Virus record (IMG/VR): IMGVR_UViG_3300022871_000010
Length of the DNA stretch: 64,000 bases
From: a virus
Lineage: Duplodnaviria; Heunggongvirae; Uroviricota; Caudoviricetes
Reading direction: 5' to 3' (one strand)
This document shows positions 4,607 to 50,320 of the stretch, piece by piece. The notes below the pieces were generated by a model. The model did no database searches. It was not told the DNA's origin and saw only the letters and a program-made list of their open reading frames with translations. Each line of letters starts with the position of its first letter. Positions within the stretch are counted from its first letter, which is position 1. Position numbers and translations under genes: made by a program.

Positions 4607-6061
4607 TTACCAGAACCTCTCGGAAGTAGTTTTACCAGTATCTGGGTTTAAAAATGAATAACCTCTAACTCCATAGTTGTAACGATAATCATCTTTGTAT
4701 ATAGGTTTAGCATTTGGGTCTAACACCATTTCATAAGATGGTGAACTACCATAAGCATTAGTTGGATGGTCTTCACTCAATGTATTTTTAATGTAAGAAT
4801 CTCTATCAAAATTAACTTTTCTAAAAGTATTTCCTTTAGCTGCGCCATAATCTATTTGGCCAATGTTTTTATCACCGACAAAATATTGTTCTGATTTTAA
4901 CTGAGCCTTTTGGTTTATATCTCTAACAACAGTTCTTCCGCCATCACTATAATTACCTTGTTGGGTTCTTTTATAATTAGTTATGAAAGGTGAATAAGTC
5001 TTAACCACAGATGTTGCGTTGTTTGGAGAGTAAACACTTTCTTTTTTCAAATAAGCTTCTCTACGAGTATTCTCAAAATCACTACTGTTTCCTCTAGCAT
5101 AACGATTTTTTTCATAATTAGATTTTGCATAATCACCATACAAACTTTTTTTAAGTAACCCGCCAGTAGCAGCATATTCACTAACCTTATCTAAACGCAC
5201 AGCTCTTTTTTTATCTCTTTTAGTATCATCATCATCTGAATCTTCACGATAATAACTTTCAAAAGTTGTTCTTCCAAGAATTTTTTTTGTTATTCCAGTC
5301 TTGTAATAATCTTTTTCAGAAGATACATAAGGAGTATATTCTTTATCATATCTTTTATATCTATCATCTTTATCAGTATATTCATACAAGTTATTGTTTA
5401 TTCCTCTTTTAACTATTCTAGAAATTTTATTAGTTTCTGGGTTTATATAAACTTCTGCAGGAACATAAGTTTTATTAGTTATTTCTTTTTTAGTCTCTCC
5501 GCCATCTCTTTTATAATAATGCTTTTTAGCTAAATACTCCTGCGTTGGAGCTTTATACACATTACCTGTTTTAATAAAATTATCAGGAATATCTAACTTC
5601 CATCCCTTATTAATTAATTTAGTAGATGTGGGGGCTAAAGAAAAAGTTCCTTTTTGATAATCACTACGTACTGTCAAATTATCGCCTTTCTTTGAAAACC
5701 CAGAAATAAGTTCTGAACCTTTAAGTTTTGTTAAGAAAGTATTTTGTGCTACTGCTATTTGTTTTTTCCCTGCTATACCTGTTAAAGTATCTGGCATGAA
5801 AGACTTCAGACTAATATTTTTTCCTGAATATAGTGAATAATTTAAATTGTCAAACGGAGTTGCTTTGGATAACGTGTTTGCACTATGTTGCATTCTAGCC
5901 ATTTTTGAACTGAAAGAACCAGATTTTGTTGGAGTGTTAGTTTTATAACTTGGAAGCCTAGAAGACGATTTTGAAGCCGAACTACTCTTTCCTCGTTTAC
6001 CTTGATTTTGCATCATTTTGAATACCTCATTAAACATAGCTACTATTGGGCGGCTACTCAT
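4607..6061 (-). CDS. Hypothetical Y/K/D/N-rich protein (484 aa). Its stop abuts the start of the 1408-aa gene, so the two are probably co-transcribed.
   Basis: Long ORF with a 3-nt gap to the downstream gene. Confidence 0.6.
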   Translation of the reverse strand: MSSRPIVAMFNEVFKMMQNQGKRGKSSSASKSSSRLPSYKTNTPTKSGSFSSKMARMQHSANTLSKATPFDNLNYSLYSGKNISLKSFMPDTLTGIAGKKQIAVAQNTFLTKLKGSELISGFSKKGDNLTVRSDYQKGTFSLAPTSTKLINKGWKLDIPDNFIKTGNVYKAPTQEYLAKKHYYKRDGGETKKEITNKTYVPAEVYINPETNKISRIVKRGINNNLYEYTDKDDRYKRYDKEYTPYVSSEKDYYKTGITKKILGRTTFESYYREDSDDDDTKRDKKRAVRLDKVSEYAATGGLLKKSLYGDYAKSNYEKNRYARGNSSDFENTRREAYLKKESVYSPNNATSVVKTYSPFITNYKRTQQGNYSDGGRTVVRDINQKAQLKSEQYFVGDKNIGQIDYGAAKGNTFRKVNFDRDSYIKNTLSEDHPTNAYGSSPSYEMVLDPNAKPIYKDDYRYNYGVRGYSFLNPDTGKTTSERFW

Positions 6062-6384
6062 TTATATATATATTTTTTATAACGAGTGGTATATAAGAAA
6101 ATGCTTGGGGAGGAAAAAGAAAGAATTGGATAAAACTTAAAAACCTCCCCAAGGCTAAAAGACATTCCGAGGTCGAAACGATTATTGAATACCAGAGACA
6201 CAAATGTTTTCTTTGGAGGAAAATGATGCCCTCTGATAAAAATAATTATAAAGTGCCAGGGAATTAATTAGGGTTAACATCCCTGGCTAGGTTTGATTTT
6301 ATGAAAAGAGTATGATATCATTAATATGATTTCATAAGTTTCTAAAAAGTATTAGGGTATATAAACCTTTCGATTTACAACCAA

Positions 6385-6903
6385 TTAATACATCTTTGAA
6401 TAAGGCACTCGCTCATCAAAATCTTTTTTCCAATCAATATGTGTTAAAATTCCCATCTCTAAAAGTTTGTCTGAAATAGATTGTTCTTTAACAACACCAT
6501 AACCTTCCTTGTAACACTCATCAACTTTCTTCATTGACATTACTTTTGTTTTAAACTGTTTAGACAACCGCTCATCTTTAGGAAAATCCTTCTTGAAATG
6601 CGCAGACAGCTTGTCATACATTTTTAGACTATCTTTATATTCTTCTTCTTCCATCTCTTCAGTCCCACGAATAAATATAGTTTTCCATTCTAGATAAAAA
6701 TGCAAATCCTCACGTTCTCTGTCAGACTGTAAAACAAATTGTAACCGCCCATCAGCATTAGCTTTACGCTTTGCCTTGATAAAACTCTGGGTAATAATTT
6801 GCCAAATGTTTTCTTGAAATGTCATTAAGCCTTTAACCTTTACTGCAGTTCTTCTGAACCAACTTTGGGGAACTCTACGTCCCACTCTAACTACTACTGT
6901 CAT
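6385..6903 (-). CDS. Hypothetical protein (172 aa).
   Basis: ORF with an acidic stretch (EEMEEEEY). No recognisable motif. Confidence 0.5.
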   Translation of the reverse strand: MTVVVRVGRRVPQSWFRRTAVKVKGLMTFQENIWQIITQSFIKAKRKANADGRLQFVLQSDREREDLHFYLEWKTIFIRGTEEMEEEEYKDSLKMYDKLSAHFKKDFPKDERLSKQFKTKVMSMKKVDECYKEGYGVVKEQSISDKLLEMGILTHIDWKKDFDERVPYSKMY

Positions 6904-6918
6904 CTTATCTCCTCCTGG

Positions 6919-8386: not shown

Positions 8387-10687
8387 TTATACATCACCCT
8401 GTTCTTCCCTGATTTTCATAATTAATTGTTTTGCATCAGTCATGATTTGTTGCACTTGTTTTTTTGATATAGGAATGTCATACTGGTTCTTTACGTGAAG
8501 AGTAATTCTATTCATAGTCAGTGTCGTGTCATTAACCATAATATCTTGTAATGCAAGTAACAACAAAGACTTGTAAATATCTGTTGAAGAAACTTCACTA
8601 CGAACGACATCTTCATCATACACATTTCTTTCCCTAACCTTCAAGTATTTTGTGTACAACCAATTTGGAACTTTAGGAAATTTTATTATTTTCCAAAAAT
8701 TTGGATGTTTTTTTAGTTTCTTTTCAATCTCAGTTAATGAAGTGAACTCAGTATATGAGCCAACGTTTTTAAAATCTTTAAGTCTCCATGGGTCGTTACT
8801 TGGATTTTTATCTTTAACATAAATTGCGCCAAGACCTCTACCAAATAAATCTATCCAGTAATTTACGAAAGAATTATGAACCAATAGATTATTTGCAACA
8901 TAATTTTTGTTTTTGTTTACATTTAATATATCATAAACATCCACATTTGGTTCTTTATTTATTTGTATTATTGATTCAAACTTATTTGATATTGTAAAAA
9001 TTTTATGATTATGTGTTAATTCATGTAATTGTTTCCATCCATCATTTGTAAAAAAACTATGATTTTTTGTGGCCTTAATTTTATTATTTGTTGTAATAAT
9101 TTCAAAGACTATATCATTTTTTGTTTTTACACAAGCTTCAGCAAATTGATATTCATACTTTTTATTTTTTATATCATAGCTTAATACTTCAATGTTTGAT
9201 TTATTTTCTAAATGTTTTATTTTTTGTAAACCCTGTCTAGTATGTATTAAAGTGTCCCCATGTAAACATTCTAAATAATTTTTTTCTATCTTAACAATTT
9301 TTAATGGAAAACATAAAATAAATAATAAATGTTTTGTTCTAACTTCCGCTAACCGTTTTTTTAATTCTTTAGACTCTTTTTTTGCCCAATCCGCAGAACT
9401 ATTATGTACAACAAAATTATTAGCAATATAATTATTATTATCTTCAACATTAATTATATCATAAACATCTATTTTTTCTTTTTTTGTTATGCTTTTAATT
9501 TTTATAAATTTATTATTAAAACATACTAACATATTTTTATTAATATGTTGCAATTCTTTCCATCCATTATTTGTTAAAAATTTATGTTCTTTAGTGGCTC
9601 TTATAATGTTTTCATTTTCGATTTCTAATTCATATACATAATCTGTTTTTGTTTTAATTATTGTTTTGGCTTTTTTAAATTCTGTTTGTTTATTTTTTAT
9701 ATTATATGATAATACTTTAATATTTTTTTTATTTACTAAAGTGCTTATTTTTTTAGGACCTTCTAAGGTTTGAATAATTGTGTTTCCACAAATACACGCA
9801 AACCTTACCGCTTCATCTGCGATTATTGGTTCGAACGCATTTAATTTATTAATTTTATCCATAACGTCTTTATTGTTATAGGCTAAATGTCTATTGGGGT
9901 CAAATCTTATTCCAATTAATTTACACCATTCTCTAGCTAACATTATTGAGGCAGACGATTTTCCAGTATTTGAAACAACAAACCCGTTAGCTATAAAATT
10001 ATGATTATCTCTAACATTAACTACATCATAAACATTTTGTTTTCCTAAATGTTTTATTGATTTTATTATATTATTTATTATTTTTTTATTATTATCAACT
10101 GTCACAATTTTTTTAGTTTTATCATTTATTTTCAAATCTTTTAATTCTTTATATGTTCCGTCCATTAATAAAAACGGATGGTCTGCAGTGGCCTTTATAA
10201 TTTGACCAGTTATTAATTCTAATTCATATACATCATCATACTTAGCAAACTCTACACCGTCAGAATCTTTTATTTCTAATTTTTTAGTATCCTTATTAAA
10301 TGAATAAACTTTTATTGGACCTTTATTTATTAGTTCTTTTAATGGAACTCCAACCGGATATTTTGTTAAATCTCTAGGCATCATCAATAAAGAATCATCT
10401 GTCAAACATCCTTTCTCAGAAGTCATTAGTACCATACTATCGTAGTTGGCTAAATTTCTATAAAGTAAATGTTTTGCAAACATTCTAAATATGTTGAAAC
10501 CTCTGTTGTTTGGTTTTTCTCCTTCAACATATTTTTTACCTTCTTCATTGTGCATTTCTTGAATTATAAATAGAATATCATTTAACCCAAGCTTGACACT
10601 ACTTGGATTGTCTGTCTTAAAAGATTCTTTAATTATGTTTTCTACTAATCTCCTAGTACCAAAACCTAACTCTTTTGCGTCAGCCAT
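8387..10687 (-). CDS. AAA+/P-loop ATPase interrupted by three mini-inteins. The extein is about 355 aa and is Orc1/Cdc6-like or packaging-ATPase-like.
   Basis: The spliced extein reads SEKG|TGKSSASIML (Walker A), then about 50 aa later EPIIADEAVRFA (Walker B). Three inserts each start with Cys and end in (H/S)N followed by Ser or Thr. Confidence 0.7.
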   Translation of the reverse strand: MADAKELGFGTRRLVENIIKESFKTDNPSSVKLGLNDILFIIQEMHNEEGKKYVEGEKPNNRGFNIFRMFAKHLLYRNLANYDSMVLMTSEKGCLTDDSLLMMPRDLTKYPVGVPLKELINKGPIKVYSFNKDTKKLEIKDSDGVEFAKYDDVYELELITGQIIKATADHPFLLMDGTYKELKDLKINDKTKKIVTVDNNKKIINNIIKSIKHLGKQNVYDVVNVRDNHNFIANGFVVSNTGKSSASIMLAREWCKLIGIRFDPNRHLAYNNKDVMDKINKLNAFEPIIADEAVRFACICGNTIIQTLEGPKKISTLVNKKNIKVLSYNIKNKQTEFKKAKTIIKTKTDYVYELEIENENIIRATKEHKFLTNNGWKELQHINKNMLVCFNNKFIKIKSITKKEKIDVYDIINVEDNNNYIANNFVVHNSSADWAKKESKELKKRLAEVRTKHLLFILCFPLKIVKIEKNYLECLHGDTLIHTRQGLQKIKHLENKSNIEVLSYDIKNKKYEYQFAEACVKTKNDIVFEIITTNNKIKATKNHSFFTNDGWKQLHELTHNHKIFTISNKFESIIQINKEPNVDVYDILNVNKNKNYVANNLLVHNSFVNYWIDLFGRGLGAIYVKDKNPSNDPWRLKDFKNVGSYTEFTSLTEIEKKLKKHPNFWKIIKFPKVPNWLYTKYLKVRERNVYDEDVVRSEVSSTDIYKSLLLLALQDIMVNDTTLTMNRITLHVKNQYDIPISKKQVQQIMTDAKQLIMKIREEQGDV
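8873..9268 (-). mobile_element. Mini-intein 3 (aa 474-605, 132 aa).
   Basis: Starts CLHGDTLIHT. Ends KNYVANNLLVHN|S. It is paralogous to intein 2: both have EVLSY / KATK(E/N)H / VYDI(I/L)NV. Confidence 0.8.
9401..9796 (-). mobile_element. Mini-intein 2 (aa 298-429, 132 aa), inserted just after Walker B.
   Basis: Starts CICGNTIIQT. Ends NNYIANNFVVHN|S. Confidence 0.8.
9968..10408 (-). mobile_element. Mini-intein 1 (aa 94-240, 147 aa), inserted inside the P-loop between G and TGKS.
   Basis: Starts CLTDDSLLMM. Contains the block-B-like TADHPFLL. Ends DNHNFIANGFVVSN|T. Confidence 0.8.
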
Positions 10688-12462: not shown

Positions 12463-12586
12463 TTTAAATGAACTGTTTGTAGTTTGTTTAAACCTGAAGT
12501 TTAAATGAACTGTTTGTAGTTTGTTTAAACCTGAAGTTTAAATGAACTGTTTGTAGTTTGTTTAAACCTGAAGTTTAAATGAACTC
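12463..12586. repeat. Perfect tandem direct repeat: a 37-bp unit (tttaaatgaactgtttgtagtttgtttaaacctgaag) in about 3.3 copies, in the upstream region of the helicase gene.
   Basis: Units begin at 12463, 12500, 12537 and 12574 and are identical. Confidence 0.9.
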
Positions 12587-12677
12587 TTTAATTTTTATTC
12601 TTACATACCATAGTTTACTTAATTCATCAATGTGGTCTACAGCTTTACTATTAACTAATATATCTCTAATTCTTGCT

Positions 12678-13238
12678 TCAATTTCTCCTACTTGAACTTT
12701 TAGTATTTTTTTGTTTATTTCTATTTTTATTCACCCTCTTTAGTTTTTGTTGTTGTGGTTGTGGTCTTGATATACCTAAAGCTCTTTCTAGTCTATCGTT
12801 ATATACTCCGCCTCTAGATTGATTATTGTTGTTATTGTTTTGATTGTTGTTGTTATTGTTTTGATTGTTATTTGAATTATTGTTTGATACTCCTAACATT
12901 CTATTAATTTTATCTGAAATACTATTCCCGCCATTTTGACCACCATTAGACATTCCACCAAAACTAAAGGCTTTAGCTAACTTTTCTAGTTTGTCGGTTT
13001 TGTCTTGACCTGTCATCTTCTTAATTTCTTGTTCTTTAATATGTTTTACCATTTCAGGTCTTAATTCTAATAATGCTTGTTCTCTTGCTTCCGTCATTAT
13101 CTTATTTTTGAATTCTTTTTCTTTACGTTTTGTTTCTAACCTATTTTTTATTTTTGTTATAAGTTTTGATATTAATCCAGGCTTCTTAACTTCAACCTTT
13201 TCTTCAATTCCATATCTTTCTAATTCTTCCATATTCAT
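12678..13238 (-). CDS. Hypothetical Lys-rich coiled-coil protein with a poly-Asn/Gln low-complexity tract (186 aa).
   Basis: ORF with NNNSNNNQNNNNNNQNNNNNNQ, encoded by imperfect nucleotide repeats at about 12790-12880. Confidence 0.5.
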   Translation of the reverse strand: MNMEELERYGIEEKVEVKKPGLISKLITKIKNRLETKRKEKEFKNKIMTEAREQALLELRPEMVKHIKEQEIKKMTGQDKTDKLEKLAKAFSFGGMSNGGQNGGNSISDKINRMLGVSNNNSNNNQNNNNNNQNNNNNNQSRGGVYNDRLERALGISRPQPQQQKLKRVNKNRNKQKNTKSSSRRN

Positions 13239-13454
13239 TTTATTTCACCTATCATAATTGTTTATATTAATATAATTAATAATGATATATATAAATGTTT
13301 TGTTTTACCATTATCCCTTATCATATTCAAAGTCACCTGACACTGGTTACAGTGACACTCATAATATATTCTTAAAGTCTATATATATAAAATTGTTATA
13401 TATATACACTCTCTGAAGGCTTTTAGAAATGCACAATATTTATTAGAAAAAACA

Positions 13455-13997
13455 TTTGTCAGTGACTGTATATATTTATTACTTTAATATACAATTATAT
13501 TATTATATCATATATACAGTCACTGCGTCAGTATACACATGTGTATACTCGAACGCGTTTTAGGCTTTTTTGAACTGTAAATGGCTGTACTTTTTTATAC
13601 CTAAAAGCCATACTAAAACTTCTTATAATAACAACACAAGGTCTGTATGTATATATATGGTGTATATGGGTTATACTTCTATCTCTATATGTATTATATT
13701 AACTACTCAGAGAGTATATATATTTTTTAATTTTATATTTTCATTATTTATGATATTTTCTTTGGCTTTTTCTTGGCTTTTTTTGGCTAAAATGGCTTTT
13801 TTTGGCTTTCCTTTATAAAAGGATTGGCTATATTGTGGCTTTTTTATAATATTTTTTAGCCATTATGGCTAAAATTTTAGCCAAAATCACTGAAAACCTG
13901 AAAAATAATTAGTGACTGTATATACAGTCACTATTTGTAAATTCAATAAATCACAATAAATTATGTTAAAAGTTCAGTGACTATATATATAGTCACT
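13455..13997. promoter_or_regulatory. Palindrome cluster in the divergent strand-switch intergenic region. It is a candidate operator array and/or replication origin.
   Basis: Inverted repeat CAGTGACTGTATATA (13460-13474) with TATATACAGTCACTG (13511-13525). 20-bp perfect palindrome AGTATACACATGTGTATACT (13530-13549). 22-bp perfect palindromes AGTGACTGTATATACAGTCACT (13911-13932) and AGTGACTATATATATAGTCACT (13976-13997). Confidence 0.6.
13762..13886. repeat. Array of TTGGCT direct repeats ending in the palindromes TAGCCATTATGGCTA and GGCTAAAATTTTAGCC. This is a candidate protein-binding iteron field.
   Basis: At least six copies of TTGGCTTTTT-like units, then a perfect palindrome at 13857-13871 and a 16-bp one at 13867-13882. 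Confidence 0.55.
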
Positions 13998-14152
13998 ATC
14001 TTGTCACATTTTTTCAGTGACACTTTTCCAATATTATGATAGGGTTGTGCAAAATAAAAACATTTATATATATCAAAGAAAATAATAATATTCATATAGA
14101 AAAAAAGGAATTAATTTTTAACAATTCTTTTTTGTAAATAGGTGATATATTT

Positions 14153-14539
14153 ATGACATATGAAAAAAACAATAAACATTTATACTTAGGGATAACAAAA
14201 GACCTACTGGTCAAAATAAAAAAAATTAATCAATTCTTAGAAATACCCCAACATATCATTATTAATTCTGCATTAAAATCTCAATTAAACATTTTATCAA
14301 GTGCTGAAGATGTTATTAATCTTAAACCATATTTTGAACAACATATAAAATTTATAAGATATGATAATAACATTATGACACATATTAGTCAAATTAAAAG
14401 ATTAAGTCAAATGGCTTTTTTATTAGATACCACCAAAGCGCAATGCATATATATTTTAGTTAATAAAGGTTTAGATGAAAAATTAAAGCTAATGAATTTA
14501 AAACAACAATATGTGGTATCTAATAATAGGGGGTACTAA
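14153..14539 (+). CDS. Hypothetical protein (128 aa). First gene of the plus-strand block.
   Basis: ORF preceded by a TATA-like aaaacatttatatata and the SD aggtga. Confidence 0.5.
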   Translation: MTYEKNNKHLYLGITKDLLVKIKKINQFLEIPQHIIINSALKSQLNILSSAEDVINLKPYFEQHIKFIRYDNNIMTHISQIKRLSQMAFLLDTTKAQCIYILVNKGLDEKLKLMNLKQQYVVSNNRGY

Positions 14540-16738
14540 ATGACTCCGACTAATTTTCAGATATTAACTCCCAGTCAAATAAATATATTATCTTCACATG
14601 ATTTAATTAATAAACAAATAGATAAAGTTTTTAATAGAATCTTTAATGCTTCATCAAAAAAATTAGCCAGTATATTATTAACAGGTGATTATATTGATAT
14701 TAACATTTTATCATTCAAACCTAATTATGAAGCATTCATTAAACGAAATTCTGGATTATTTAATTCAATGGAATCAAATGGTACAACAATTTATTTATTA
14801 AATAATGATGTAGCTAAAAATTTACATACAGAATTATTAAAAACTTTACAAAAGATAGGTACAGCCATTGTAGATGCAGATGAAGATGATTCTGAAAAAT
14901 GGACTAAAAAACAAATTAATGGTCAAGAGTTTTATGAAGTTAATGAAGCAACAACTTTTCAAGATATAAGACAAATTCTTGGTAAGGAAGGAAAAAATAT
15001 AAATTTTCGTTATCCATTTAGAAAAGCTGATATGAAAGCAGCAGTGTTTGAGAATAAGAATACTCTACAAATGGTTAATGTACACATTAATAATGATGGT
15101 GAATATTTTGGTTACCCAGTAACTTATACATATATATGTCCTGAGTGTAGAGAAATCTTTACATGCCCGGAATATGAAACGAGTTCTAAGCAGGCTAATA
15201 AGATGGCTTGCACTGGAGAAGTAACTACTATAGATAGTCATAATGTAGAAAAATTAAAGAGATGTAATAATAGTTTAATTCCGGATAATAATAGGACTGA
15301 AACTAAAGACTCATTTATTTATGATGTATCATTCATTAATGAAGATGGTAATAATCAAAAGGCTGAAGCTATATCATTCATTCAATTACCCAAAGGAAAC
15401 ATCCGTGTAGTATTACAAAAGATACCTAGGGCTTTCGGAATACAATTAGTTCACATTGTAGATTATGAAGAAATAGAAAAGAAATCTTTAGAACTACCTC
15501 CAAGAAAATCTAAACATTATATGTTTGATTTAATAAAAGCTATAGATGATTATATTTTAAAAATAACCAATTATAAACATTATGGGTTTTTATCAATGAA
15601 GATGTCTATGCTATTACAATTTTTTGCTAGATATAATAGGGATATAAAAAATAATTATAACATGGCATTATCCGGGACTATGTCTTCAGGTAAATCTCAG
15701 TTCTCTAGATATTGGGGACTAACTTTATATTCACAAAGTTGTTGGAGCAGCAATGCAACAAGTATTAGTATACCAAAACTTCGTGGAACAATGGAATCAT
15801 TTCATTTGTTTGGTAAAGATTATCGTTATCAATATAAAGGTTTATTTGGAGAAAAAGATTTAATCATAATTGATGAAGTTAAAGAAGCCCCTGATGTAAA
15901 AAACAATTTGAAGCAGTATGCTTTAGAACCAACTTATGAATATTCCAAACAAGGAAGTAATAATCAAACTTATGAAAGAACCGCTCAATTAATAATTACG
16001 CAAAACATCGATACAAAACATTTGGATAGATATGCTAAGGCTGTACAGAAAATTTATATGTCCGACTCTTTAGTGGTTGATGATGAAAGCGTTGGGCCTA
16101 AACCAGCCTGGGGGTTTTCTGAAGATTTAACTCTGCCATTGTATGCTTATGCAAATCCTTATTTACAGTATGCAGTTCAAAAGGCCAGAGATGAATATGA
16201 AAGAAGTCAAATCAATTGGATTGATGGTTCTGAACTTGCACTGAAACAAAGGTTTTTCTTTTATTTTTATTTAAGTTCTGAAGAAAGCAATCATGAATTA
16301 AAAACAGTAATCCAGGAAAACAGTGTTAACAAAATTATATCAAACAACACAAACATTGTTAAATTAATGAATTGTGATAAGTTAGTTAAGTATGTTAAAG
16401 ACCAGGAACACTTGTTTGAAAATTATAATGATATAAAATATTTTAACAAAGTTGATGATATTTTAAAAACTTATAAGAAACGAAATGACGCAAGGACCAA
16501 AGAAATGGCTTACATGATAATTAAAATGTTAAGAATGATTGATGGGCGTAAAGAATGTAATGATACAGATTTAGAAATTTTTACTTACATTATAGAAAAC
16601 ATAGATAACAAAATAGAAATTATTAACACAAATAATTTTGTCATTAAAGGAGCGCACTCAGTGGTTTTAAAAGTAGATGAAAGAAACGCTGAAGATGACG
16701 AATGGGAAAACAATAACAATAAAGGAAACTTTTTTTAG
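14540..16738 (+). CDS. AAA+ replicative-helicase candidate (MCM-like or SF3/D5-like) with an N-terminal Cys-cluster zinc module (732 aa).
   Basis: Zn module ICPECREIFTCPEY...MACTGE...KRCNN. Walker A LSGTMSSGKSQF (MCM-type GKSQ). Walker B LFGEKDLIIIDEVKEA about 60 aa later. Sensor-1 / motif-C-like TAQLIITQN. Confidence 0.5.
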   Translation: MTPTNFQILTPSQINILSSHDLINKQIDKVFNRIFNASSKKLASILLTGDYIDINILSFKPNYEAFIKRNSGLFNSMESNGTTIYLLNNDVAKNLHTELLKTLQKIGTAIVDADEDDSEKWTKKQINGQEFYEVNEATTFQDIRQILGKEGKNINFRYPFRKADMKAAVFENKNTLQMVNVHINNDGEYFGYPVTYTYICPECREIFTCPEYETSSKQANKMACTGEVTTIDSHNVEKLKRCNNSLIPDNNRTETKDSFIYDVSFINEDGNNQKAEAISFIQLPKGNIRVVLQKIPRAFGIQLVHIVDYEEIEKKSLELPPRKSKHYMFDLIKAIDDYILKITNYKHYGFLSMKMSMLLQFFARYNRDIKNNYNMALSGTMSSGKSQFSRYWGLTLYSQSCWSSNATSISIPKLRGTMESFHLFGKDYRYQYKGLFGEKDLIIIDEVKEAPDVKNNLKQYALEPTYEYSKQGSNNQTYERTAQLIITQNIDTKHLDRYAKAVQKIYMSDSLVVDDESVGPKPAWGFSEDLTLPLYAYANPYLQYAVQKARDEYERSQINWIDGSELALKQRFFFYFYLSSEESNHELKTVIQENSVNKIISNNTNIVKLMNCDKLVKYVKDQEHLFENYNDIKYFNKVDDILKTYKKRNDARTKEMAYMIIKMLRMIDGRKECNDTDLEIFTYIIENIDNKIEIINTNNFVIKGAHSVVLKVDERNAEDDEWENNNNKGNFF

Positions 16739-24465: not shown

Positions 24466-24921
24466 ATGAGTGATTGGCGTGGACATTTAAAGTTTGGATA
24501 TTCTATTCAGTTACCAGTATTTATTATTTTATTTCTAACAGCATATTTTGTCGATAATCCTTATTTAGTTTTTTCTTTAGCAGAAGTTGTTGCAGGAATA
24601 ACACTATTTATTATAGCGCCATTGATTCCTGACTTGGACCATCGTAGTTCTAAAATAACTAATACCAGTACAGTACTATTATTATTAACTGTATGGGTTT
24701 CTATATATTTTGAGAGTGTAATGTTTATGTATTCTTTAGTAGCTTTAACTCTTGTGGTTCTTATTTCTACATTTACTAAACATCGAGGAATAACTCATCG
24801 TGTTTGGTTATATTTTCTTTTAGGGTTAATATTGTTTTTAACTACAGGATTAGTTGTGGCTGCAGTAATATTAATTGTGGGTGCCTGGTCCCACATTTGG
24901 TTAGACAATAGACATCATTAA
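24466..24921 (+). CDS. Integral membrane protein with His-rich motifs (151 aa). A DUF457/YdjM-like membrane hydrolase is possible.
   Basis: Four hydrophobic helices. Motifs PDLDHRSSK, KHRGITHR and SHIWLDNRHH. Confidence 0.35.
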   Translation: MSDWRGHLKFGYSIQLPVFIILFLTAYFVDNPYLVFSLAEVVAGITLFIIAPLIPDLDHRSSKITNTSTVLLLLTVWVSIYFESVMFMYSLVALTLVVLISTFTKHRGITHRVWLYFLLGLILFLTTGLVVAAVILIVGAWSHIWLDNRHH

Positions 24922-25541
24922 AAATAAACAAATTTTAATATTGTCACAACAGTTGTTAGTATTAGTAATATTATTGCAATCATCCAAAGCCAAGTATATG
25001 AATTATTTGTGTCTACTATTATTGGAGTAACCACTTTATCTACAGGAGCAGGCGTGGGGATGTTATCATTAATGCCTTCGTGTTCACTTTCATTTAATAC
25101 AACTGGAACGGTTTCTAGTTCAGGAATTATTACAAGCATTGGTTCAGTAGCGTTTATAGAATTATTAAAGTTAACTACTGGTTGTTGATAATAAGACCTA
25201 CTTCGGCTTCCACTGCTTCCACCACTGCTTGTTGCAGTTATTGTTTCACCTTTGTAAAAAGAAGTCATTACCATAGTGTAATTATTTTGTGTTAATAAAT
25301 CAGTTTTTAGTGTCAGATTGTAATTATTGTAACAGTCACAAAACCAAGAATTATTAAATATTTCTGTGCATCCTTCAAAAGAATATTCTCCAGCATCAAT
25401 AGTGTAAAGCCCAGTTACTGTAACTTTTAAAGTTTCACACTTATCAAAAGTATGTATTGTTTCAGTGCTTCCAGCAGTTACGGCTCCAACAATATTTATT
25501 GTTAGTAGAATCATTAGTATCATTAAAATAGTTTTTTTCAT
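24918..25541 (-). CDS. Secreted, C-terminally anchored Cys-motif protein (207 aa). Paralog of 46388..46894.
   Basis: Signal peptide, C-x7-W-x-C-x-C motif (GCTEIFNNSWFCDC), Ser/Gly linker, and a C-terminal transmembrane helix. Confidence 0.55.
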   Translation of the reverse strand: MKKTILMILMILLTINIVGAVTAGSTETIHTFDKCETLKVTVTGLYTIDAGEYSFEGCTEIFNNSWFCDCYNNYNLTLKTDLLTQNNYTMVMTSFYKGETITATSSGGSSGSRSRSYYQQPVVNFNNSINATEPMLVIIPELETVPVVLNESEHEGINDNIPTPAPVDKVVTPIIVDTNNSYTWLWMIAIILLILTTVVTILKFVYF

Positions 25542-25606: not shown

Positions 25607-26254
25607 TTAATTATTTAAAACTGCGCTAACTACATAAGTAGATGGTGCTACATTACCAAAGGACATAGTTACTGGATATTTATTAACATCTCCAGGAGCT
25701 AAAGAATTGATTGGTACTGCAAAATCTATTGTGCCATCAACATTTTCTGTACATAACCCTATACCAGTTAGTTCTTGAACTACATGATAATATGCTGAAG
25801 TTGAAGAAACACCTACATCAATAAAAGTTAGGCTAGTTAAATCTGCACAAGTTACATCATTAAGGTCGTTGGATAGACTCACTAATAATATTTTATTAGT
25901 AATGTCTTCATCAATAGTATCAGATACTTCTACACTTAGTCCTAAGTCTAAAGTACTTAATCCAGTTATTGCACCAGCAGTTAATGTTGGGCTCCAAGTT
26001 ACGGAACCATCTCTGGTATTTACAATTGCTGAAGTTACTGTTTCTCCATGGTCTACTTCTGCGAAACCTATAACAATAGGACTTTCTACATCAACAGACA
26101 TGGTTGCTGTGTTTGATAAGTAACCAACTATAACGGCACTTACCCCTCCAATAATCATTAAACCCATTAATAAGGCAACTATTGGTATTCCAAAAATTTT
26201 TTTAGTATTCATATTAAAGATATATTTATTTAGGTGACTTATAAATGTTTTCAT
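25607..26254 (-). CDS. Secreted or membrane-anchored Thr/Val/Ser-rich protein (215 aa).
   Basis: N-terminal transmembrane/signal segment FGIPIVALLMGLMIIGGVSAVIVG followed by beta-rich low-charge sequence. Confidence 0.5.
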   Translation of the reverse strand: MKTFISHLNKYIFNMNTKKIFGIPIVALLMGLMIIGGVSAVIVGYLSNTATMSVDVESPIVIGFAEVDHGETVTSAIVNTRDGSVTWSPTLTAGAITGLSTLDLGLSVEVSDTIDEDITNKILLVSLSNDLNDVTCADLTSLTFIDVGVSSTSAYYHVVQELTGIGLCTENVDGTIDFAVPINSLAPGDVNKYPVTMSFGNVAPSTYVVSAVLNN

Positions 26255-26969: not shown

Positions 26970-27149
26970 ATATTTTTTTTATTTTTTTAATAATTATTAT
27001 CAAGCATTATTACACAGGGCTATTTGATATATTCAATTGATTTTTTCGTTGTGTAATAATATTAATATTTACGTGCGGTTGGTTGGAGTTATTCAGCAGA
27101 ACTATGGTTTTTGTATATGAATAAAAAGACCCATACATCCGCATTACTA

Positions 27150-27222
27150 GGGCTCGTAGCATAACGGCTAATGCAGTCGCCTTGCAAGCGAAAGACTTTG
27201 GGTTCAAATCCCAACGGGTCCA
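27150..27222 (+). tRNA. tRNA-Ala (anticodon TGC).
   Basis: Cloverleaf read by hand: acceptor GGGCTCG/CGGGTCC with the G3:U70 Ala identity pair, D-arm GCAT/ATGC, anticodon loop CTTGCAA, T-arm TTGGG-TTCAAAT-CCCAA. No encoded CCA. Confidence 0.8.
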
Positions 27223-27509
27223 TTCATACCAGAAACAAAGACAGAACAATATAGCTAACATACGATGTTGTAAGGAAAACCAGGTACTCTGGCAACCTAT
27301 ATCTGTAGTCGCAACAGACTATCCTGCCAGGGGTAAATGAAATACAAGTAACGATGAGATTAGTAAATAATGAAAACTTTAAATGAACCTTTTTGGAATG
27401 TTTAATGTTGAGTAATTGTTTAAAATTGTTTGAGTCACTCAACTGGTTTCAAGGTTTATTGCTCTTTGCTGGATAAAGGTAGTTTCCGCCTAAAAGGGAA
27501 CATTCAATT

Positions 27510-27598
27510 TGGGGCATAGCTCAGTATGGTAGAGCAGGTTAATGGGATAATTTAATTATTCAATCTATCAGTCGGGGGTTCGAATCCCTCTGCCCTTA
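27510..27598 (+). tRNA. tRNA-like gene with about 14-20 extra nucleotides in the anticodon arm (possible archaeal intron) and a mismatched 1:72 pair. The anticodon could not be assigned.
   Basis: Acceptor and D-arm (T)GGGGCA-TA-GCTC-AGTATGGTA-GAGC. T-arm GGGGG-TTCGAAT-CCCTC. 3' acceptor TGCCCTT-A. The middle region AGGTT...AATCT can pair around a 21-nt insert. Confidence 0.5.
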
Positions 27599-27599
27599 T

Positions 27600-39220: not shown

Positions 39221-42200
39221 ATGATTAGAGAAAAAGAATATGTTTGTCCTCCAAATTTTGAGGATGTATTAATATACGATATAGAGACAGCGGCATTCGG
39301 GGATTCGCCTAATGCACAAAAAAATGATTTAAGAGTATTTGGGTATTATTCATTTAATACAGATACTCTAGGAACATTACCGTATTATGATAAAGAAGGT
39401 ATTCAGAAACTTATTGATGAACATAAATTCTTAGTAGGTTATAATAATATAGAATATGATAATCCAATATTAGAGAGAGAAGGAATTTCTTTAGAGTATA
39501 AACGAATGGTTGATTTGATGAAAATATTATTAAATAGGGCCGGCGGAATGAAAACAAATAAAGGAATGGTTGGGCAAGAACTATTAAGATATTCGTTAGA
39601 CGCAGTGACAAGATTCTTTGACTTAGTAAATGATGAAACAGCAAAAGGAGATTTAGATTATTCAATATTGAAAAAAACTAAATGGACTAAAGAAGAAAAA
39701 GATGATATAATAAAATATACTAAAAGAGATATTGAAATAACTAAAAAGCTTTATTTATTTATGGAAAAATATTTTGAAGGATTTAAAGACTTCGTTCCAG
39801 AAAAAGATATTAAAGGAAAATATTATTTAACTGACAGTATGGCAAAAGTTGTATACAAAGCAATATGTCACGCCCTTAAATGGGAACCAGAATATGATAA
39901 AGACTTCACTCCAGAACTTGCGAAAGATAGAATTGACGGCGGATATGTATCATACCCGGCTGGAGAAAAGTTTGTAGGAAATATTTATTGCCTGGATTAT
40001 AACAGCCTTTATCCATCAATTATGATGATGTGTAACCTTTACGGAAGAAACAAGACTACATTCAAAGGATGGAATGGTGATAACTATTTTGATGTAAAAG
40101 GGTTTTATGATAGTGAAAACCAAAGTGAAACTTCAGTACTATTACAAAACTTATATTTATTAAGAATGATGTATAAACGAAAACTATTATTAGAAGACGG
40201 ACACATCATTAAAATGATAGACAAAAAGAATGGGAAAAGTGTTTATGATTATATAGGACAAAAATATCATCACGTAAGTAAACACGCAGGTGGGCAGATT
40301 TGTTCCTCTTTAGAATTATTAACCAAAGCGCAAGCAGACCATTTCTATAAAATAACTTTAGAAGGAATGGACCCAAGAGAGTACACTATTAAAATAATTA
40401 TTAATTGCTTTGATGAGACAGGACAAGTAATGACCCCCGAAGGAATTAAGTATATCAAAGATTGCAAAGTCGGTGATATGGTTTATTCTATTAATCCAAA
40501 AAATTCATTATTAGAAGTAAAACCAATAATCGATGTAACTAAAAGAGAATACACTGGGAGTTTTCACAATTACAGAAGCAACGGATATAATTTTAGAATA
40601 ACCCCGAATCATAAGTTATTATTAAATAACAAACATCAAAAACAAGGCGACAGTGTATTTTTAAAATCTGTAAGTTTAAGAGACCAAAGAATTATTCCAT
40701 CCGCCAAACCTAATTTTCCGGAACAACCAGAATTTATTTATTTAGACGATGTATACCATGAAAATTTTATGGTAGCTATAAGACCTAAAGACAATGAACA
40801 ATTGTTTTTCACAGATAATAATTTAGATATTAATGATTTCAGGTACAGTACAGTATTGAAGGCATACATAATTAAATACAGTGAAATAAAAAAAACTTTA
40901 AGAACATTAGAAAATTGTGATATAAAATGTTATCACGAAGACACAATCATTAGAGATTGCAATGCAATGGATTATAAAATGGATAGAAAAACTTTTATGG
41001 AATTGATTGGATGGTTAATATTCAGAGGAAATATTCATAAAGTTAAAACATACACTACAATAAATCCTAGAACACTAAAAGTAAAAAAAGTTGCGGAAAG
41101 ACAGTTCATGACAATTAAAGGAACACATAGTTGGTCTGAAACAATAACAGTTAAAGCAATATTTGATTTGTGTAAATCTCTGGGGTTGCATCCAGTAAAA
41201 CAAGGAAAAATAATATTATGTCATAATCAGATTTTAGTAAATATGATGTTACCATATAAAGTTGACGACACCCTAATGAATTTAGAAGGGTTCCTAAAAT
41301 ATTTAGATGCTGAAACCGCGCACTTAATAATTAAAACGATGATAAAATTTTCTCAAGAAAATTCATCAACAGACATATGTGTTTGGGATGAAGGAGCAAA
41401 AATAGCAGTATGCAAACTTATAACTTTAGCTGGAGGAACTTTTGTTTTAACACCAAAAAAGAATTTTACTAGAATAAGAACATCTTTTGTTCCAACGCTA
41501 ATAGGACCAAAAAATAAAAAATCATATCAACACAGTGGACCAATATATAACATTCATGTAAAAGATAACCATACTATACTTGCGGGGAGCTATGGGAAAT
41601 TTAATTGGATAGGGCAAACATCCTACGGGATTTTAGATAAGAAGTACTACAAATTAGTATATGATAAAGTTGCCGCAGGAGATTGTACCAGATTAGCCAG
41701 ACAATGGGTTAAGTTAGCAAGAAAAAGGTTTAAGGCCGAAGGATACAAAATCATATATACAGATAGTGTAACTAAAGATATGAAAGTAACTTTACAGAAT
41801 GACGAACAAATAACGGTTGAAGAATACTGGAATAAGTATGCGGCAAATAAAGAGTTAGTTGCAGAAACAAAATTTAGACATGAAGACAAAGAATATGGTG
41901 ATTGTATCAAACCAATACTAACATGCAACGATTTATACAAGAACGAGTTTCAAACACCAGTACAAATAATAAGGCACAAGAAAGCTGATAGAATTTATGA
42001 ATTTCATACAGAATCAGGTAAAGTATTAAAATGTACAGCAGACCATTCAATAATAACATTAGACTTAGACACCATGCAATATAAGACAATAACACCAGAA
42101 GAAGCAAAAGAAGTAGGGTTTTTATTAATTGACGTTAGAACGCACGGAATGGCTCCTGATGATATGACTTTAGAGGAAGCAGATTTCACAATGGATGCAA

Positions 42201-43021
42201 TAGTTAAAACAGAAGAATATTTCGAGAATGATTATGTTTATGACTTTTCAATAGATGATTACGAAAAGTTCTATGCCAACGATGTATTAGTACATAATAC
42301 TGATTCATGGTATTTTGAAGATGTGTACGACGACCCACAAAGATTCCTGGAATTAAAGGACAAATTAATTGAGGAAATAAAAACACACACACCATTCCCA
42401 TCGGCAACATTTGATGCAGGAGTAGATGATGAAATTAAAGCAATGTTCTTTTTTCAAGCAAGAAAAGGTAAAGCTGCTAAAGAAGAAGATGAAAGCGAAT
42501 TAGATGATGATGACCGAATGTATAAACCTTTAGGCCTAATGAAAAAGAATTACATTTATGTAACCCAGAAAGACAAATTAGTATTAAAGAATTTAGGGAT
42601 AAAGAAAAAAAGTATCAGTGCATTATCTAAAAAGATATTTTGGGAATACATGGTTCCAATAATAAAGAAAGACTTTGTAGTAAAGTTTTCTAAAGTAAAG
42701 ATAGATAACTTAATGATTGAATATTTATCTGAAAATATAGAGTTAGCCTATATGAGAAAGAAAGTTAAATCATATGGGGCGTATAAGAAATCAAACACAA
42801 TAATTCAAGCACAGATAGCTAAGAAGTATGGCCCAGGAATACATTTTTTAATACCAAACAAAAGACATATTGGTGTTGGAAAAGGAGTAACTTATTGTTC
42901 AGACAAAGAATTCAAAGAGACAGGAATGAGCATAGCAGATATAGATTTAGAATATTATCGTAAAGAATTAGCTTATTTTGCAGTAGATAACAGACAACAA
43001 AAGTTGTTTGATATGTTTTAG
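39221..43021 (+). CDS. polB: Family-B DNA polymerase with a 3'-5' exonuclease domain, interrupted by two inteins. The extein is about 694 aa, or about 740 aa if intein 2 takes the shorter Cys-start boundary.
   Basis: Exo I IYDIETAA, Exo II YNNIEYDNPIL, Exo III YTKRDIEIT. Motif A LDYNSLYPSI. Motif B KIIIN-[intein]-SYGKF. Motif C GYKIIYTD-[intein]-TDSWYFE. KxY motif KKNYIYV. Confidence 0.85.
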   Translation: MIREKEYVCPPNFEDVLIYDIETAAFGDSPNAQKNDLRVFGYYSFNTDTLGTLPYYDKEGIQKLIDEHKFLVGYNNIEYDNPILEREGISLEYKRMVDLMKILLNRAGGMKTNKGMVGQELLRYSLDAVTRFFDLVNDETAKGDLDYSILKKTKWTKEEKDDIIKYTKRDIEITKKLYLFMEKYFEGFKDFVPEKDIKGKYYLTDSMAKVVYKAICHALKWEPEYDKDFTPELAKDRIDGGYVSYPAGEKFVGNIYCLDYNSLYPSIMMMCNLYGRNKTTFKGWNGDNYFDVKGFYDSENQSETSVLLQNLYLLRMMYKRKLLLEDGHIIKMIDKKNGKSVYDYIGQKYHHVSKHAGGQICSSLELLTKAQADHFYKITLEGMDPREYTIKIIINCFDETGQVMTPEGIKYIKDCKVGDMVYSINPKNSLLEVKPIIDVTKREYTGSFHNYRSNGYNFRITPNHKLLLNNKHQKQGDSVFLKSVSLRDQRIIPSAKPNFPEQPEFIYLDDVYHENFMVAIRPKDNEQLFFTDNNLDINDFRYSTVLKAYIIKYSEIKKTLRTLENCDIKCYHEDTIIRDCNAMDYKMDRKTFMELIGWLIFRGNIHKVKTYTTINPRTLKVKKVAERQFMTIKGTHSWSETITVKAIFDLCKSLGLHPVKQGKIILCHNQILVNMMLPYKVDDTLMNLEGFLKYLDAETAHLIIKTMIKFSQENSSTDICVWDEGAKIAVCKLITLAGGTFVLTPKKNFTRIRTSFVPTLIGPKNKKSYQHSGPIYNIHVKDNHTILAGSYGKFNWIGQTSYGILDKKYYKLVYDKVAAGDCTRLARQWVKLARKRFKAEGYKIIYTDSVTKDMKVTLQNDEQITVEEYWNKYAANKELVAETKFRHEDKEYGDCIKPILTCNDLYKNEFQTPVQIIRHKKADRIYEFHTESGKVLKCTADHSIITLDLDTMQYKTITPEEAKEVGFLLIDVRTHGMAPDDMTLEEADFTMDAIVKTEEYFENDYVYDFSIDDYEKFYANDVLVHNTDSWYFEDVYDDPQRFLELKDKLIEEIKTHTPFPSATFDAGVDDEIKAMFFFQARKGKAAKEEDESELDDDDRMYKPLGLMKKNYIYVTQKDKLVLKNLGIKKKSISALSKKIFWEYMVPIIKKDFVVKFSKVKIDNLMIEYLSENIELAYMRKKVKSYGAYKKSNTIIQAQIAKKYGPGIHFLIPNKRHIGVGKGVTYCSDKEFKETGMSIADIDLEYYRKELAYFAVDNRQQKLFDMF
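40406..41587 (+). mobile_element. PolB intein 1 (about aa 396-789), carrying a LAGLIDADG-type endonuclease, at the motif-B (pol-b) site. The C-terminal junction is non-canonical.
   Basis: Starts CFDETGQVMTPEGIKYIKDCKVGDMVYSI. LAGLIDADG-like LIGWLIFRGN and LITLAGGTF. Block F-like IYNIHVKDNHTILAG. No His-Asn immediately before the SYGKF that restores motif B. Confidence 0.6.
41765..42298 (+). mobile_element. PolB mini-intein 2 at the motif-C (pol-c) site. The preferred boundary is a Ser-1 start (aa 849-1026), giving the spliced motif YTDTDS. The alternative is a Cys start at 41903 after EYGD.
   Basis: Block A SVTKDMKVTLQNDEQITVEEY. Block B VLKCTADHSIITLD. C-terminus ANDVLVHN|TDS. Confidence 0.65.
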
Positions 43022-49309: not shown

Positions 49310-49483
49310 ATGTCAATAAGAGTTATTGCGGGAGTATTAATGATTCTAATGACCATGCTCATGACGTGGCGTGAAGGTATGATTAAATTTATAGCAATAG
49401 GTATAGGCATTGTAATATGTCTATATATTATCAGAAAGATTGCGGACCTATATTGGTATGGCAAAGACAAGAACGAGTGGTAA
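49310..49483 (+). CDS. Small membrane protein (57 aa). Not in the ORF track.
   Basis: MSIRVIAGVLMILMTMLMTW...IAIGIGIVICLYII. Confidence 0.4.
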   Translation: MSIRVIAGVLMILMTMLMTWREGMIKFIAIGIGIVICLYIIRKIADLYWYGKDKNEW

Positions 49484-49494
49484 TATTTCTAAAT

Positions 49495-50320
49495 TAATTA
49501 AATTATAGCACTGACTTAATTGTCGCACTCTTTTATAAAGTAGTCAGGGCTATATATAAATGAACTGACTTAATTGTTTCACATCTATATTCTCTAAACT
49601 ATATGTTGTAAACTATATGTTGTAAACTATATGTTCTAACCTATATGTTGTAACCTATATGTTCTAAACTATATGTTCTAAACTATATGTTGTAACCTAT
49701 ATGTTGTAAACTATATGTTCTAAACTATATGTTCTAAACTATATGTTCTAAACTATACTTCATTCTTGTTATTTACTTGACTGACAAAAATGTCTCACTC
49801 CTTTTATAAAGAAACACAGTTCATATATAAAGGACTGACTTAATTGTCTCACATCTATATTCTCTAACCTATATGTTGTAACCTATATGTTGTAACCTAT
49901 ATGTTGTAACCTATATGTTGTAAACTATATGTTGTAACCTATATGTTGTAGACTATATGTTTCCAACAAGTTACTTTTATCGGGACTGACAAAAATGTCT
50001 CACTCCTTTATAAAAGAAGTTACTATATATATAAATGGACTGACTTTTTTGTCTCACATCTATATTCTCTAACCTATAGGTTGTAACCTATATGTTGTAA
50101 CCTATATGTTGTAACCTATATGTTGTAACCTATATGTTGTAACCTATATGTTGTAACCTATATGTTGTAGACTATATGTTTCCAACAAGTTACTTTTATC
50201 GGGACTGACAAAAATGTCTCACTCCTTTATAAAAGAAGTTACTATATATATAAATGGACTGACTTTTTTGTCTCACATCTATATTCTCTAACCTATAGGT
50301 TGCAGACTATACCTTTTATA
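49495..50320. repeat. Higher-order repeat locus. Four roughly 110-bp leaders, each with two TATA-like boxes and duplicated GACTGAC...GTCTCAC elements, are each followed by an array of 14-bp direct repeats (CTATATGTTGTAAC or CTATATGTTCTAAA).
   Basis: Arrays span about 49597-49757 (11 or more units), 49867-49958 (about 6.5), 50071-50178 (about 7.5) and 50291-50312 (truncated). The leaders at 49981-50070 and 50181-50290 are identical. There are no spacers, so this is not a CRISPR. Confidence 0.9.

Follow-up and report, generated by a model that had tools for sequence, protein, structure and literature searches.

The origins of Staphylococcus aureus pathogenicity islands (SaPIs) carry 6-12 penta- or hexanucleotide iterons beside the gene for a self-loading helicase, with a central AT-rich region that splits the iterons into two sets (PMC9371898). 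These iterons point opposite ways and are specific to each element, and one class of the Rep helicase has an MCM-type (SF6) ATPase (PMC9371898). Turnover of the repeat word together with its linked initiator is reported for archaeal origin recognition box (ORB)/initiator pairs (PMC5333045, PMC3528665), and element-specific turnover for the SaPI iterons (PMC9371898). Here, we describe a locus in a 64-kb stretch of DNA (the window) from the IMG/VR virus record IMGVR_UViG_3300022871_000010. The source is an uncultivated, probably archaeal virus or plasmid-like element, and its 914-bp gene-free strand switch at 13239-14152 (the gap) most likely forms a composite non-coding control region. From its sequence we consider it reasonably probable that the gap is a bidirectional origin, built of iterons and a duplex-unwinding element (DUE) and fused to divergent promoters. 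The switch lies where an earlier note on this DNA (the original prediction) had placed it: the large open reading frames (ORFs) left of 13238 are all on the minus strand, and those right of 14153 are nearly all on the plus strand, the exceptions being 24918-25541, 25607-26254, 27010-27261, and a few tiny ORFs.

The interior of the gap contains the following features, which are without strand unless one is given.

13562-13610: left iteron mini-cluster (AGGCT plus, TGGCT plus, AGCCA minus)
13611-13761: AT-rich core, a candidate DUE, with its AT peak at 13715-13760
13762-13841, plus strand: phased array of seven direct TGGCT iterons with T-tracts between them, consensus TTTTGGCTTTTT
13809-13823: near-palindromic TATA-like element TCCTTTATAAAAGGA inside the iteron array
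13854-13883: inverted TGGCT copies that make two overlapping palindromes (TTTTAGCCATTATGGCTAAAATTTTAGCCA)
13888-13910: unconstrained spacer, which holds 10 of the 18 differences between strains in the gap

The core word TGGCT/AGGCT is present in 14 copies in the gap, 11 of them direct and 3 inverted, and AGCCA occurs 12 times where 1.0 is expected (P = 7e-10). Most of the GTGAC and TGGCT words of the window sit inside the gap. The repeat field seen in the original prediction is thus real, with a different count: at least six TTGGCT direct repeats had been claimed, and the exact hexamer is found five times in direct and once in inverted orientation. Successive copies in the seven-copy array are 11, 10, 9, 10, 22, and 11 bp apart, a helically phased spacing, and the array is identical in the sister strains L010 and L011. 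The iteron orientation is + + - in the left set and seven +, then - + - in the right set, and the innermost iterons (13606, minus; 13764, plus) point away from each other across 13611-13761. The palindromes TAGCCATTATGGCTA and GGCTAAAATTTTAGCC, with which the field was said to end, are indeed found at 13854-13883. The NF-I-like symmetry ascribed to them fails on spacing: an NF-I site reads TTGGC-N5-GCCAA, and the arrangements here are GCCA-N3-TGGC (13859-13869) and TGGC-N10-GCCA (13866-13883). An 82-aa ORF within the gap (13570-13818) is spurious, with no homologue in 25 related loci; its Phe/Ile/Leu-rich product is a consequence of the T-tracts.

By nearest-neighbour calculation, of the seven 40-bp segments that are least stable in the 64 kb, four fall inside the gap (starts 13469, 13254, 13715, and 13366). 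The least-stable 40-bp duplex of the whole window, that at 13469, lies within the region of the 34-nt AT-rich spacer of an inverted repeat described below. In the AT core, the lowest stabilities belong to a 40-bp segment from 13715, an 80-bp segment from 13671, and a 120-bp segment from 13643, which rank at the 99.8th-100th percentile of the window. Both 13611-13761 and 13476-13509 are therefore among the least stable duplex of the window, as an AT-rich unwinding element should be.

The genes nearest to the gap are given next, with the basis of each assignment.

12678-13238, minus strand: first gene of the leftward block, 186 aa (ORF list)
14153-14539, plus strand: first gene of the rightward operon, 128 aa, ribbon-helix-helix (RHH)-like (synteny and alignment)
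14540-16738, plus strand: divergent full-length MCM-type replicative helicase, 732 aa (structure comparison)

By sequence, the 732-aa protein of the window has no Pfam MCM match, only faint matches to AAA and DUF5906, and a profile of its family finds no match among PDB sequences. An AlphaFold2 model (pLDDT 81), in which the terminal regions are helical and winged-helix-like, was compared with known structures using Foldseek. The model matches MCM2-7 and archaeal MCM over 600-780 columns with E about 1e-19 to 1e-20, and the best 50 matches are all MCM. An exhaustive profile search with the family recovered 152 cluster representatives among 1.84 billion proteins, and among the most distant of these are some that reach the gathering threshold of the Pfam MCM model, which provides a bridge in sequence. 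Because of the Foldseek matches and this bridge, the gene is assigned as a very divergent full-length MCM, and the D5/SF3 primase-helicase identity suggested by the faint DUF5906 match was replaced after the structure comparison. The protein carries a Cys4 zinc motif, Walker A K385, Walker B D445/E446, and R571; an alignment of 31 MCM homologues contains four invariant Cys residues together with the Walker A, Walker B, and arginine motifs. The modelled fold, with a predicted N-terminal zinc-binding/OB domain and an MCM-clade AAA+ core, is that of the MCM family, within which the helicase belongs to a small, sequence-isolated clade. The elements that encode it appear to form a previously undescribed archaeal-type family with a highly divergent MCM.

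Loci of ~15 distinct lineages, with 40-57% MCM identity and all from metagenomes, were retrieved for comparison. In every lineage, 0.6-1.0 kb without genes separates a block on the minus strand from the plus-strand block that follows. Each gap, with L001 as the weak exception, is enriched in one word of 5-7 nt (Poisson P 1e-10 to 1e-24 relative to the rest of the locus), which is present in 6-16 copies, 10-11 bp apart, around a core of more than 90% AT. The sets of words commonly stand in opposite orientation across the AT core; this is clear in L003 (five copies, ~120 bp of AT core, four inverted copies), L005, L006 (four copies, AT core, three copies), and L012. The word itself is specific to the lineage.

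TGGCT plus GTGAC: the window
TGGCAA(A): L005, L006, L009, L012, L025
TGTCACA: L003, L007, L008
GGACAA: L004
TGTTAC: L013
ATGACAA: L015
TGGGAAT: L017/18
GGGACCA: L021

In L009, the RHH and MCM genes have moved ~2 kb off, with seven small genes between them and the strand switch, while the iteron field has remained in place at the latter. This comparative anatomy, a fixed layout with a lineage-specific word, is the strongest evidence for an origin in the gap. The possibility of an origin had been raised in the original prediction, and it is supported by an interior of iterons around an AT-rich core that is kept in ~15 relatives and by the adjoining MCM gene.

Saline and soda lakes are the source of the metagenomic contigs that carry the relatives, none of them longer than 110 kb. 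One relative bears the label 'archaeon', one lies on a 44-kb contig binned with Candidatus Iainarchaeum (a DPANN archaeon), and one 2.9-kb fragment is binned with a Bacilli metagenome-assembled genome; such binning is weak evidence for a host. The suggested Borg-like layout finds no support in these contigs. Borgs are very large linear elements associated with Methanoperedens and have long terminal inverted repeats. No relative was present among the INPHARED phage records by DNA or protein, and scans of IMG/VR with the MCM and the SF2 helicase found nothing.

A comparison with the sister strain L011 (~97% identical) reveals 18 differences in the gap, of which 14 fall in the spacers 13888-13910 and 14027-14030. 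The remaining ~890 bp contain 4 differences (0.45%), as compared with 3.8% at the third-codon positions of MCM. Outside the two spacers, the gap is thus ~8-fold more conserved between the sister strains than synonymous sites. Every iteron is unchanged, and so are the palindromes, with the exception of the arm position 13466 and of 13910, the outermost base of a 24-bp palindrome, which is T>C in L010/L011. The gap is under purifying selection.

The original prediction had proposed a check of GC skew and gene-strand bias, which turned out in its favour: the cumulative GC skew has its minimum at 13-15 kb, so that the skew inflects at the gap. A skew minimum with diverging genes conventionally marks an origin (PMC2194725). 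Third-codon positions were used for the analysis because gene direction also flips at the gap. On the plus strand, the third-codon GC skew is -0.218 for the genes of the left block and +0.112 for the plus-strand genes of the right block, and the three minus-strand genes within the right block also have a positive value, +0.107 (57 G vs 46 C). Because of this value in oppositely oriented genes, a model in which skew follows the coding strand only is rejected (p = 0.006), and a replichore model fits.

Two mirrored archaeal-type B recognition element (BRE)/TATA motifs (AAACATTTATATA) are situated at the edges of the gap.

13284-13306, minus strand: putative leftward BRE/TATA promoter AAAACAAAACATTTATATATA, an exact match to AACATTTATATA, 49 nt before the ATG at 13238
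14052-14074, plus strand: putative rightward archaeal-type promoter AAATAAAAACATTTATATATA, 82 nt before the ATG at 14153

In the archaeal core promoter, a purine-rich BRE stands before the TATA box TTTAWATA (PMC11065993). The generic TTTAWATA is weakly enriched upstream of gene starts (9 of 60, vs 6 for an antisense control), and for this reason the promoter assignment rests on the longer 12-nt motif AACATTTATATA. This motif occurs 10 times where 4.6 occurrences are expected, a number reached in none of 100 shuffles. Nine of the ten matches are intergenic, upstream of a gene, and in the same orientation, with the ATG 22-113 nt downstream; motif-to-ATG distances of 22-23 nt fit leaderless archaeal mRNAs. 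The tenth match (46261, minus strand) is inside a plus-strand ORF. The rightward motif is also found upstream of the equivalent gene in L001, L004, L005, L006, and L008. Recurrence and orientation are as expected of outward promoters, and from these we infer promoter function at both edges. A scan for sigma-70 promoters did not rise above shuffles.

Because mirrored copies of the motif stand at both edges, the gap can be regarded as a divergent promoter region. The original prediction had offered a divergent control region and a replichore boundary as alternatives. The two halves are instead supported together, and the skew has the polarity of an origin and not of a terminus. A role of the palindromes as terminators only is ruled out by geometry, since transcription of both flanking genes leads away from the gap. 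The sole 'terminators' called were one palindrome and one in-gene hairpin, and Rfam returned only a sub-threshold miRNA-like hairpin match, which is the palindromes themselves.

The palindromes and inverted repeats occupy both flanks of the iteron core.

13331-13359: promoter-proximal inverted pair AGTCAC-N14-AGTGACACT, direct-repeat partner of 14012-14042
13460-13475 / 13510-13525: perfect 16-nt inverted repeat CAGTGACTGTATATAT / ATATATACAGTCACTG, with a 34-nt spacer of roughly 90% AT
13530-13549: 20-bp perfect palindrome AGTATACACATGTGTATACT, its sequence kept in several diverged relatives
13910-13933: 24-bp perfect palindrome TAGTGACTGTATATACAGTCACTA, of which 13911-13933 is invariant between strains
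13976-13997: 22-bp perfect palindrome AGTGACTATATATATAGTCACT, invariant between strains
14002-14024: promoter-proximal inverted pair TGTCAC-N7-CAGTGACACT

These refine an earlier list, in which the 20-bp palindrome and the 22-bp palindrome at 13976-13997 were exact. The inverted repeat at 13460-13525 is real and had been described as 15 bp with a 36-bp spacer; its arms are a perfect 16 nt with 34 nt between them. The second palindrome with the arms AGTGACT...AGTCACT, given as 22 bp at 13911-13932, in fact spans 24 bp at 13910-13933, and the GTCAC...GTGAC pairs at 13331-13359 and 14002-14024, beside the gap edges, had been missed. With long palindromes defined as perfect, with arms of at least 9, a loop of at most 2, and at least 2 G/C per arm, five of the seven in the 64-kb window lie inside the gap, whereas 300 dinucleotide shuffles of the gap sequence averaged 0.017 and never gave more than 1. 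GTCAC occurs 10 times in the gap vs 0.3 expected (P = 1e-12), and 8 of the 16 AGTGAC sites of the window are located there. Counterparts of the 20-bp palindrome (GTATACA-N2-7-TGTATAC) are present in L013, L017/18, and L021, so that with the window four lineages carry it; all six occurrences are in gap zones, with none in 217 kb elsewhere (P = 5e-12). A different word, TACTAAYTAGTATA, recurs around the promoters in relatives (L004 at 190-400, L005 at ~6885-6905, L009 at 5520-5545 and 5990-6140, and L015). In L004 it builds 20-28-bp palindromes, TAGTTAGTATATACTAACTA, which have the form of the TATATA-core palindromes of the window and a different sequence.

The RHH-like protein encoded next to the gap is the obvious candidate for a regulator that may bind these palindromes. 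An RHH-family gene leads the rightward operon in nearly all relatives. It is poorly conserved, and nearly all relatives show a beta-strand/helix/helix signature, for example AYVIRMPGKMHNDLKLIAAILHTNMQDIVLTAIEDRL. The family profile matches only RHH proteins in PDB and Pfam (E = 0.0025-0.1), namely SSV E73, Omega, Mnt, ParD, and ParG in the former and RH3, RHH_10, and Omega_Repress in the latter. The 128-aa copy in the window is the most divergent of the family and is assigned by synteny only, its single-sequence model being unusable (pLDDT 37); it has two homologues only among 5.8 billion clusters. In the comparison with the sister strains L010/L011, the DNA of this gene diverges by 13.4%, vs ~2% for the neighbouring genes and the gap, and the protein changes cluster in the middle, leaving the first and last ~30 residues nearly unchanged. 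Presence of the GTATACA palindrome is weakly, and not significantly, associated with the RHH beta-strand, and L007 is without the palindrome. The strand itself, KG[YF]I[VF]R[LM]P, is near-identical in L025, L017, L007, L021, and L015, in which the words are TGGCAAA, TGGGAAT, TGTCACA, GGGACCA, and ATGACAA, respectively. Because five loci with five different words share a near-identical strand, the RHH protein is unlikely to read the iterons.

Many of these features could also be expected if the gap served transcription alone, with operator arrays that time both operons and with replication starting elsewhere, at 49-52 kb or at the genome ends. There is a promoter at each gap edge, each with a GTCAC...GTGAC pair ~35 bp upstream, the rightward operon begins with an RHH-family gene in nearly all relatives, and the RHH regulator Omega is among the best profile matches of that family. 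Omega and other regulators of the RHH type bind arrays of short repeats, direct or inverted. Archaeal viruses are also known to put inverted repeats at early promoters (PMC11065993). We nevertheless hold a purely transcriptional role to be rather unlikely. The gap measures 914 bp, as compared with mostly less than 300 bp for the other intergenic spaces of the genome, and operators need neither the iteron/AT core/iteron layout nor extreme duplex instability. The repeat words change where the RHH strands do not, part of the skew is independent of gene direction, and the words are largely confined to the gap within the 64 kb, which argues against a global regulon.

An improbable alternative is that the RHH-like protein binds the gap as a centromere-like partition site or as a protein-coated array of another kind, for packaging or genome organisation. 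Arrays with a spacing of ~10-11 bp, arranged in two sets about a central region next to an RHH gene, are reminiscent of parC/ParR of plasmid R1 and of the Omega and ParG sites, and the best RHH matches include Omega and ParG/ParD-type proteins. Such a site is difficult to reconcile with an RHH strand that does not track the repeat word, with the 2 kb between the RHH gene and the array in L009, and with the skew minimum, which it leaves unexplained; furthermore, the flanking genes, in the window as in its relatives, yielded no NTPase of the ParA or ParM type. A replication terminus or fork-convergence zone would likewise show a skew sign change and a strand switch and is very improbable, as the polarity is wrong (a cumulative GC-skew minimum from which the genes diverge), the helicase gene adjoins, and iterons flank an AT-rich core.

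An origin fused to divergent promoters could operate as follows. The outward BRE/TATA promoters would fire the leftward block and the rightward replication operon, in which the RHH-like protein and MCM are followed by further conserved genes and later by an RFC-like clamp loader and a family B polymerase. The origin core would comprise the TGGCT cluster (13562-13610), the ~150-bp AT core (13611-13761), and the phased array with its inverted end (13762-13883). A sequence-specific initiator encoded by the element may coat the helically phased iterons, bend the T-tract DNA, and melt the AT core, after which two MCM hexamers would be loaded for bidirectional replication. The initiator may be MCM itself, in the manner of the self-loading helicases SaPI Rep and SV40 T antigen, or a separate partner. 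The GTGAC-type palindromes and the AGTATACA...TGTATACT palindrome, which lie between the core and the promoters, are probable sites for dimeric regulators that might couple early transcription to initiation.

By analogy with those helicases, we entertain, as a tentative and on balance doubtful proposal, that the divergent MCM is its own origin-recognition protein, reading the 5-7-nt iterons and loading itself as a double hexamer without Orc1/Cdc6. If so, SaPI Rep and SV40 T antigen would have a counterpart in an archaeal virus, a natural Orc-independent, sequence-specific MCM. The iteron word showed no significant co-variation with any of 12 MCM segments in a test of low power (N-terminus p = 0.09, C-terminal region p = 0.89).

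Several observations weigh against an origin in the gap. The left iteron set of the window is small (three copies) and of mixed orientation, and the gap of L001 has only weak repeats. The skew argument depends on three oppositely oriented genes with 103 G+C third positions, gene direction and skew being otherwise confounded. Neither an Orc1/Cdc6 nor another recognised initiator turned up among the ~50 scanned ORFs of the window, nor did an Orc1/Cdc6 domain in the flanking genes, and the Pfam annotations of the relatives likewise include no Orc1/Cdc6. In addition to the MCM segments, no conserved protein family of the neighbourhood co-varies significantly with the iteron word. Finally, non-coding DNA at 49.4-52.0 kb, larger and rich in repeats, could be another origin or the main one; the skew there has no sign change.

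The latter region (49411-51975) is a 2.5-kb gene-free stretch of 25% G+C and GC skew near 0, composed of 3-4 modules of ~205-270 bp. In each module, a conserved leader (TATATAAATGGACTGACTT..TGTCTCACATCTATATTCTC) precedes tandem copies of a 14-bp unit, TAACCTATATGTTG (12.4, 6.9, and 7.9 copies), and other tandem repeats there have units of 9 bp (x3.7) and 32 bp (x2.3). The region could be a second origin, a packaging site, or a non-coding RNA array. A palindromic TATA-like motif, CCTTTATAAA(A)GG, is found once in the TGGCT array and at ~9 more exact sites, all in the non-coding DNA at 49.5-51.9 kb. Allowing at most one mismatch, there are 25 matches vs 10.5 expected. The shared motif links the gap to this region.

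The window as a whole has a G+C content of about 29%. Its genes specify an intein-bearing family B DNA polymerase, an RFC-like clamp loader, an intein-containing helicase, a NYN nuclease, and two SF2 helicases, one of which is fused to a PD-(D/E)XK nuclease. For about 50 further ORFs no family was matched, and those scanned included no recognisable virion genes; the 186-aa product of 12678-13238 has no Pfam or PHROG match. Between this gene and an SF2 helicase gene lies a near-perfect 37-bp tandem repeat, TTTAAATGAACTGTTTGTAGTTTGTTTAAACCTGAAG (12463-12589, 3.4 copies, 98% matches). Inteins interrupt the helicase-like gene at 8387-10687 (minus) and the family B polymerase gene at 39221-43021 (plus), the latter with two Hint/intein regions, and the SF2 helicase of the relatives has inteins with LAGLIDADG homing endonucleases. 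A tRNA-Ala(TGC) at 27150-27222 and a 91-nt tRNA-like call at 27509-27599, for which no anticodon was called, are located in a gap of 38% G+C. An in-frame hexanucleotide repeat, (TGCTTG)n, with ~23 copies at 894-1049, is part of a 1408-aa minus-strand ORF.

At its left end, the window runs off within an IS200/IS605-type TnpA gene (Y1_Tnp, E = 1.4e-26; 2-301, minus), which has a promoter motif 22 nt upstream (324-335, minus). Two independent assemblies of this element (81.6 kb and 49.8 kb) also start at TnpA. The contig boundary that these share, ~13.8 kb left of the gap, was considered as a genome end and rejected in view of the IS200-like transposase; because independent assemblies start at this gene, the boundary is an assembly break at a repeat and not a terminus.

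Little is known of the origins of archaeal viruses and plasmids or of the way in which they initiate, and MCM is in many cases their sole replication protein. The locus provides a concrete comparative prediction, consisting of a 0.9-kb region with iterons and an AT core, a purifiable MCM, and a small DNA-binding protein. The ~15 natural variants with a swapped word allow asking how MCM is directed without Orc1/Cdc6 and what sets iteron specificity. Were the gap only a promoter/operator region, it would still give the early-promoter and operator grammar of undescribed AT-rich elements from saline and soda lakes.

The architecture, with iterons and a DUE beside a replication gene, is of a known kind and agrees in full with neither the archaeal Orc1/ORB pattern nor the SaPI one. 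With the RHH operator and centromere arrays (Omega of pSM19035, ParR/parC of R1, and ParG), the gap shares direct and inverted short repeats before an operon led by an RHH-like gene. No partition NTPase was found here and the RHH beta-strand does not co-vary with the word, whereas a central AT-rich core and a skew minimum are not features of those systems. In the SV40 control region, the origin lies between divergent gene blocks and combines inverted pentanucleotides, palindromes, and an AT tract overlapping a TATA element; the pentanucleotides are read by the helicase itself, large T antigen, which assembles on its own into a double hexamer. The analogy is one of logic only: SV40, a eukaryotic virus, is unrelated, its helicase is of the SF3 type, and its origin measures ~64 bp.

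Archaeal ORB/DUE origins have an AT-rich unwinding element flanked by repeats that are often inverted (PMC5333045, PMC3528665). Like the gap, they are intergenic and beside a replication gene, their repeats are linkage-specific and diverge between lineages, and two repeat types can share one intergenic region. They differ in the linked gene, which here is MCM, no adjacent orc1/cdc6 having been found, and in the repeats, which here have cores of 5-7 nt (~10-11 nt with the T-tracts) in helically phased arrays, as compared with search motifs of 20-40 nt (PMC3528665).

SaPIs are bacterial, whereas the element described here has archaeal-type promoters. The SaPI origin is directly downstream of rep, while the gap is upstream of MCM, beyond a promoter and the small gene, and in L009 the iteron field is ~2 kb from MCM. 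The helicase here is an MCM of full length whose N-terminal domain carries a zinc finger, reading of the iterons by its winged-helix-like C-terminus is not supported by the low-power co-variation test, and the gap carries additional large palindromes. Against these differences stand an iteron number, 14 copies of TGGCT/AGGCT, in keeping with the 6-12 penta- or hexanucleotides of SaPI origins, and an AT-rich centre with at least two iterons on each side in opposite directions; in addition, SaPIs encode no separate loader or Orc-type initiator, and none is recognised among the ORFs scanned here. By analogy, the layout of the gap appears to be matched more closely by SaPI origins than by the archaeal ORB pattern.

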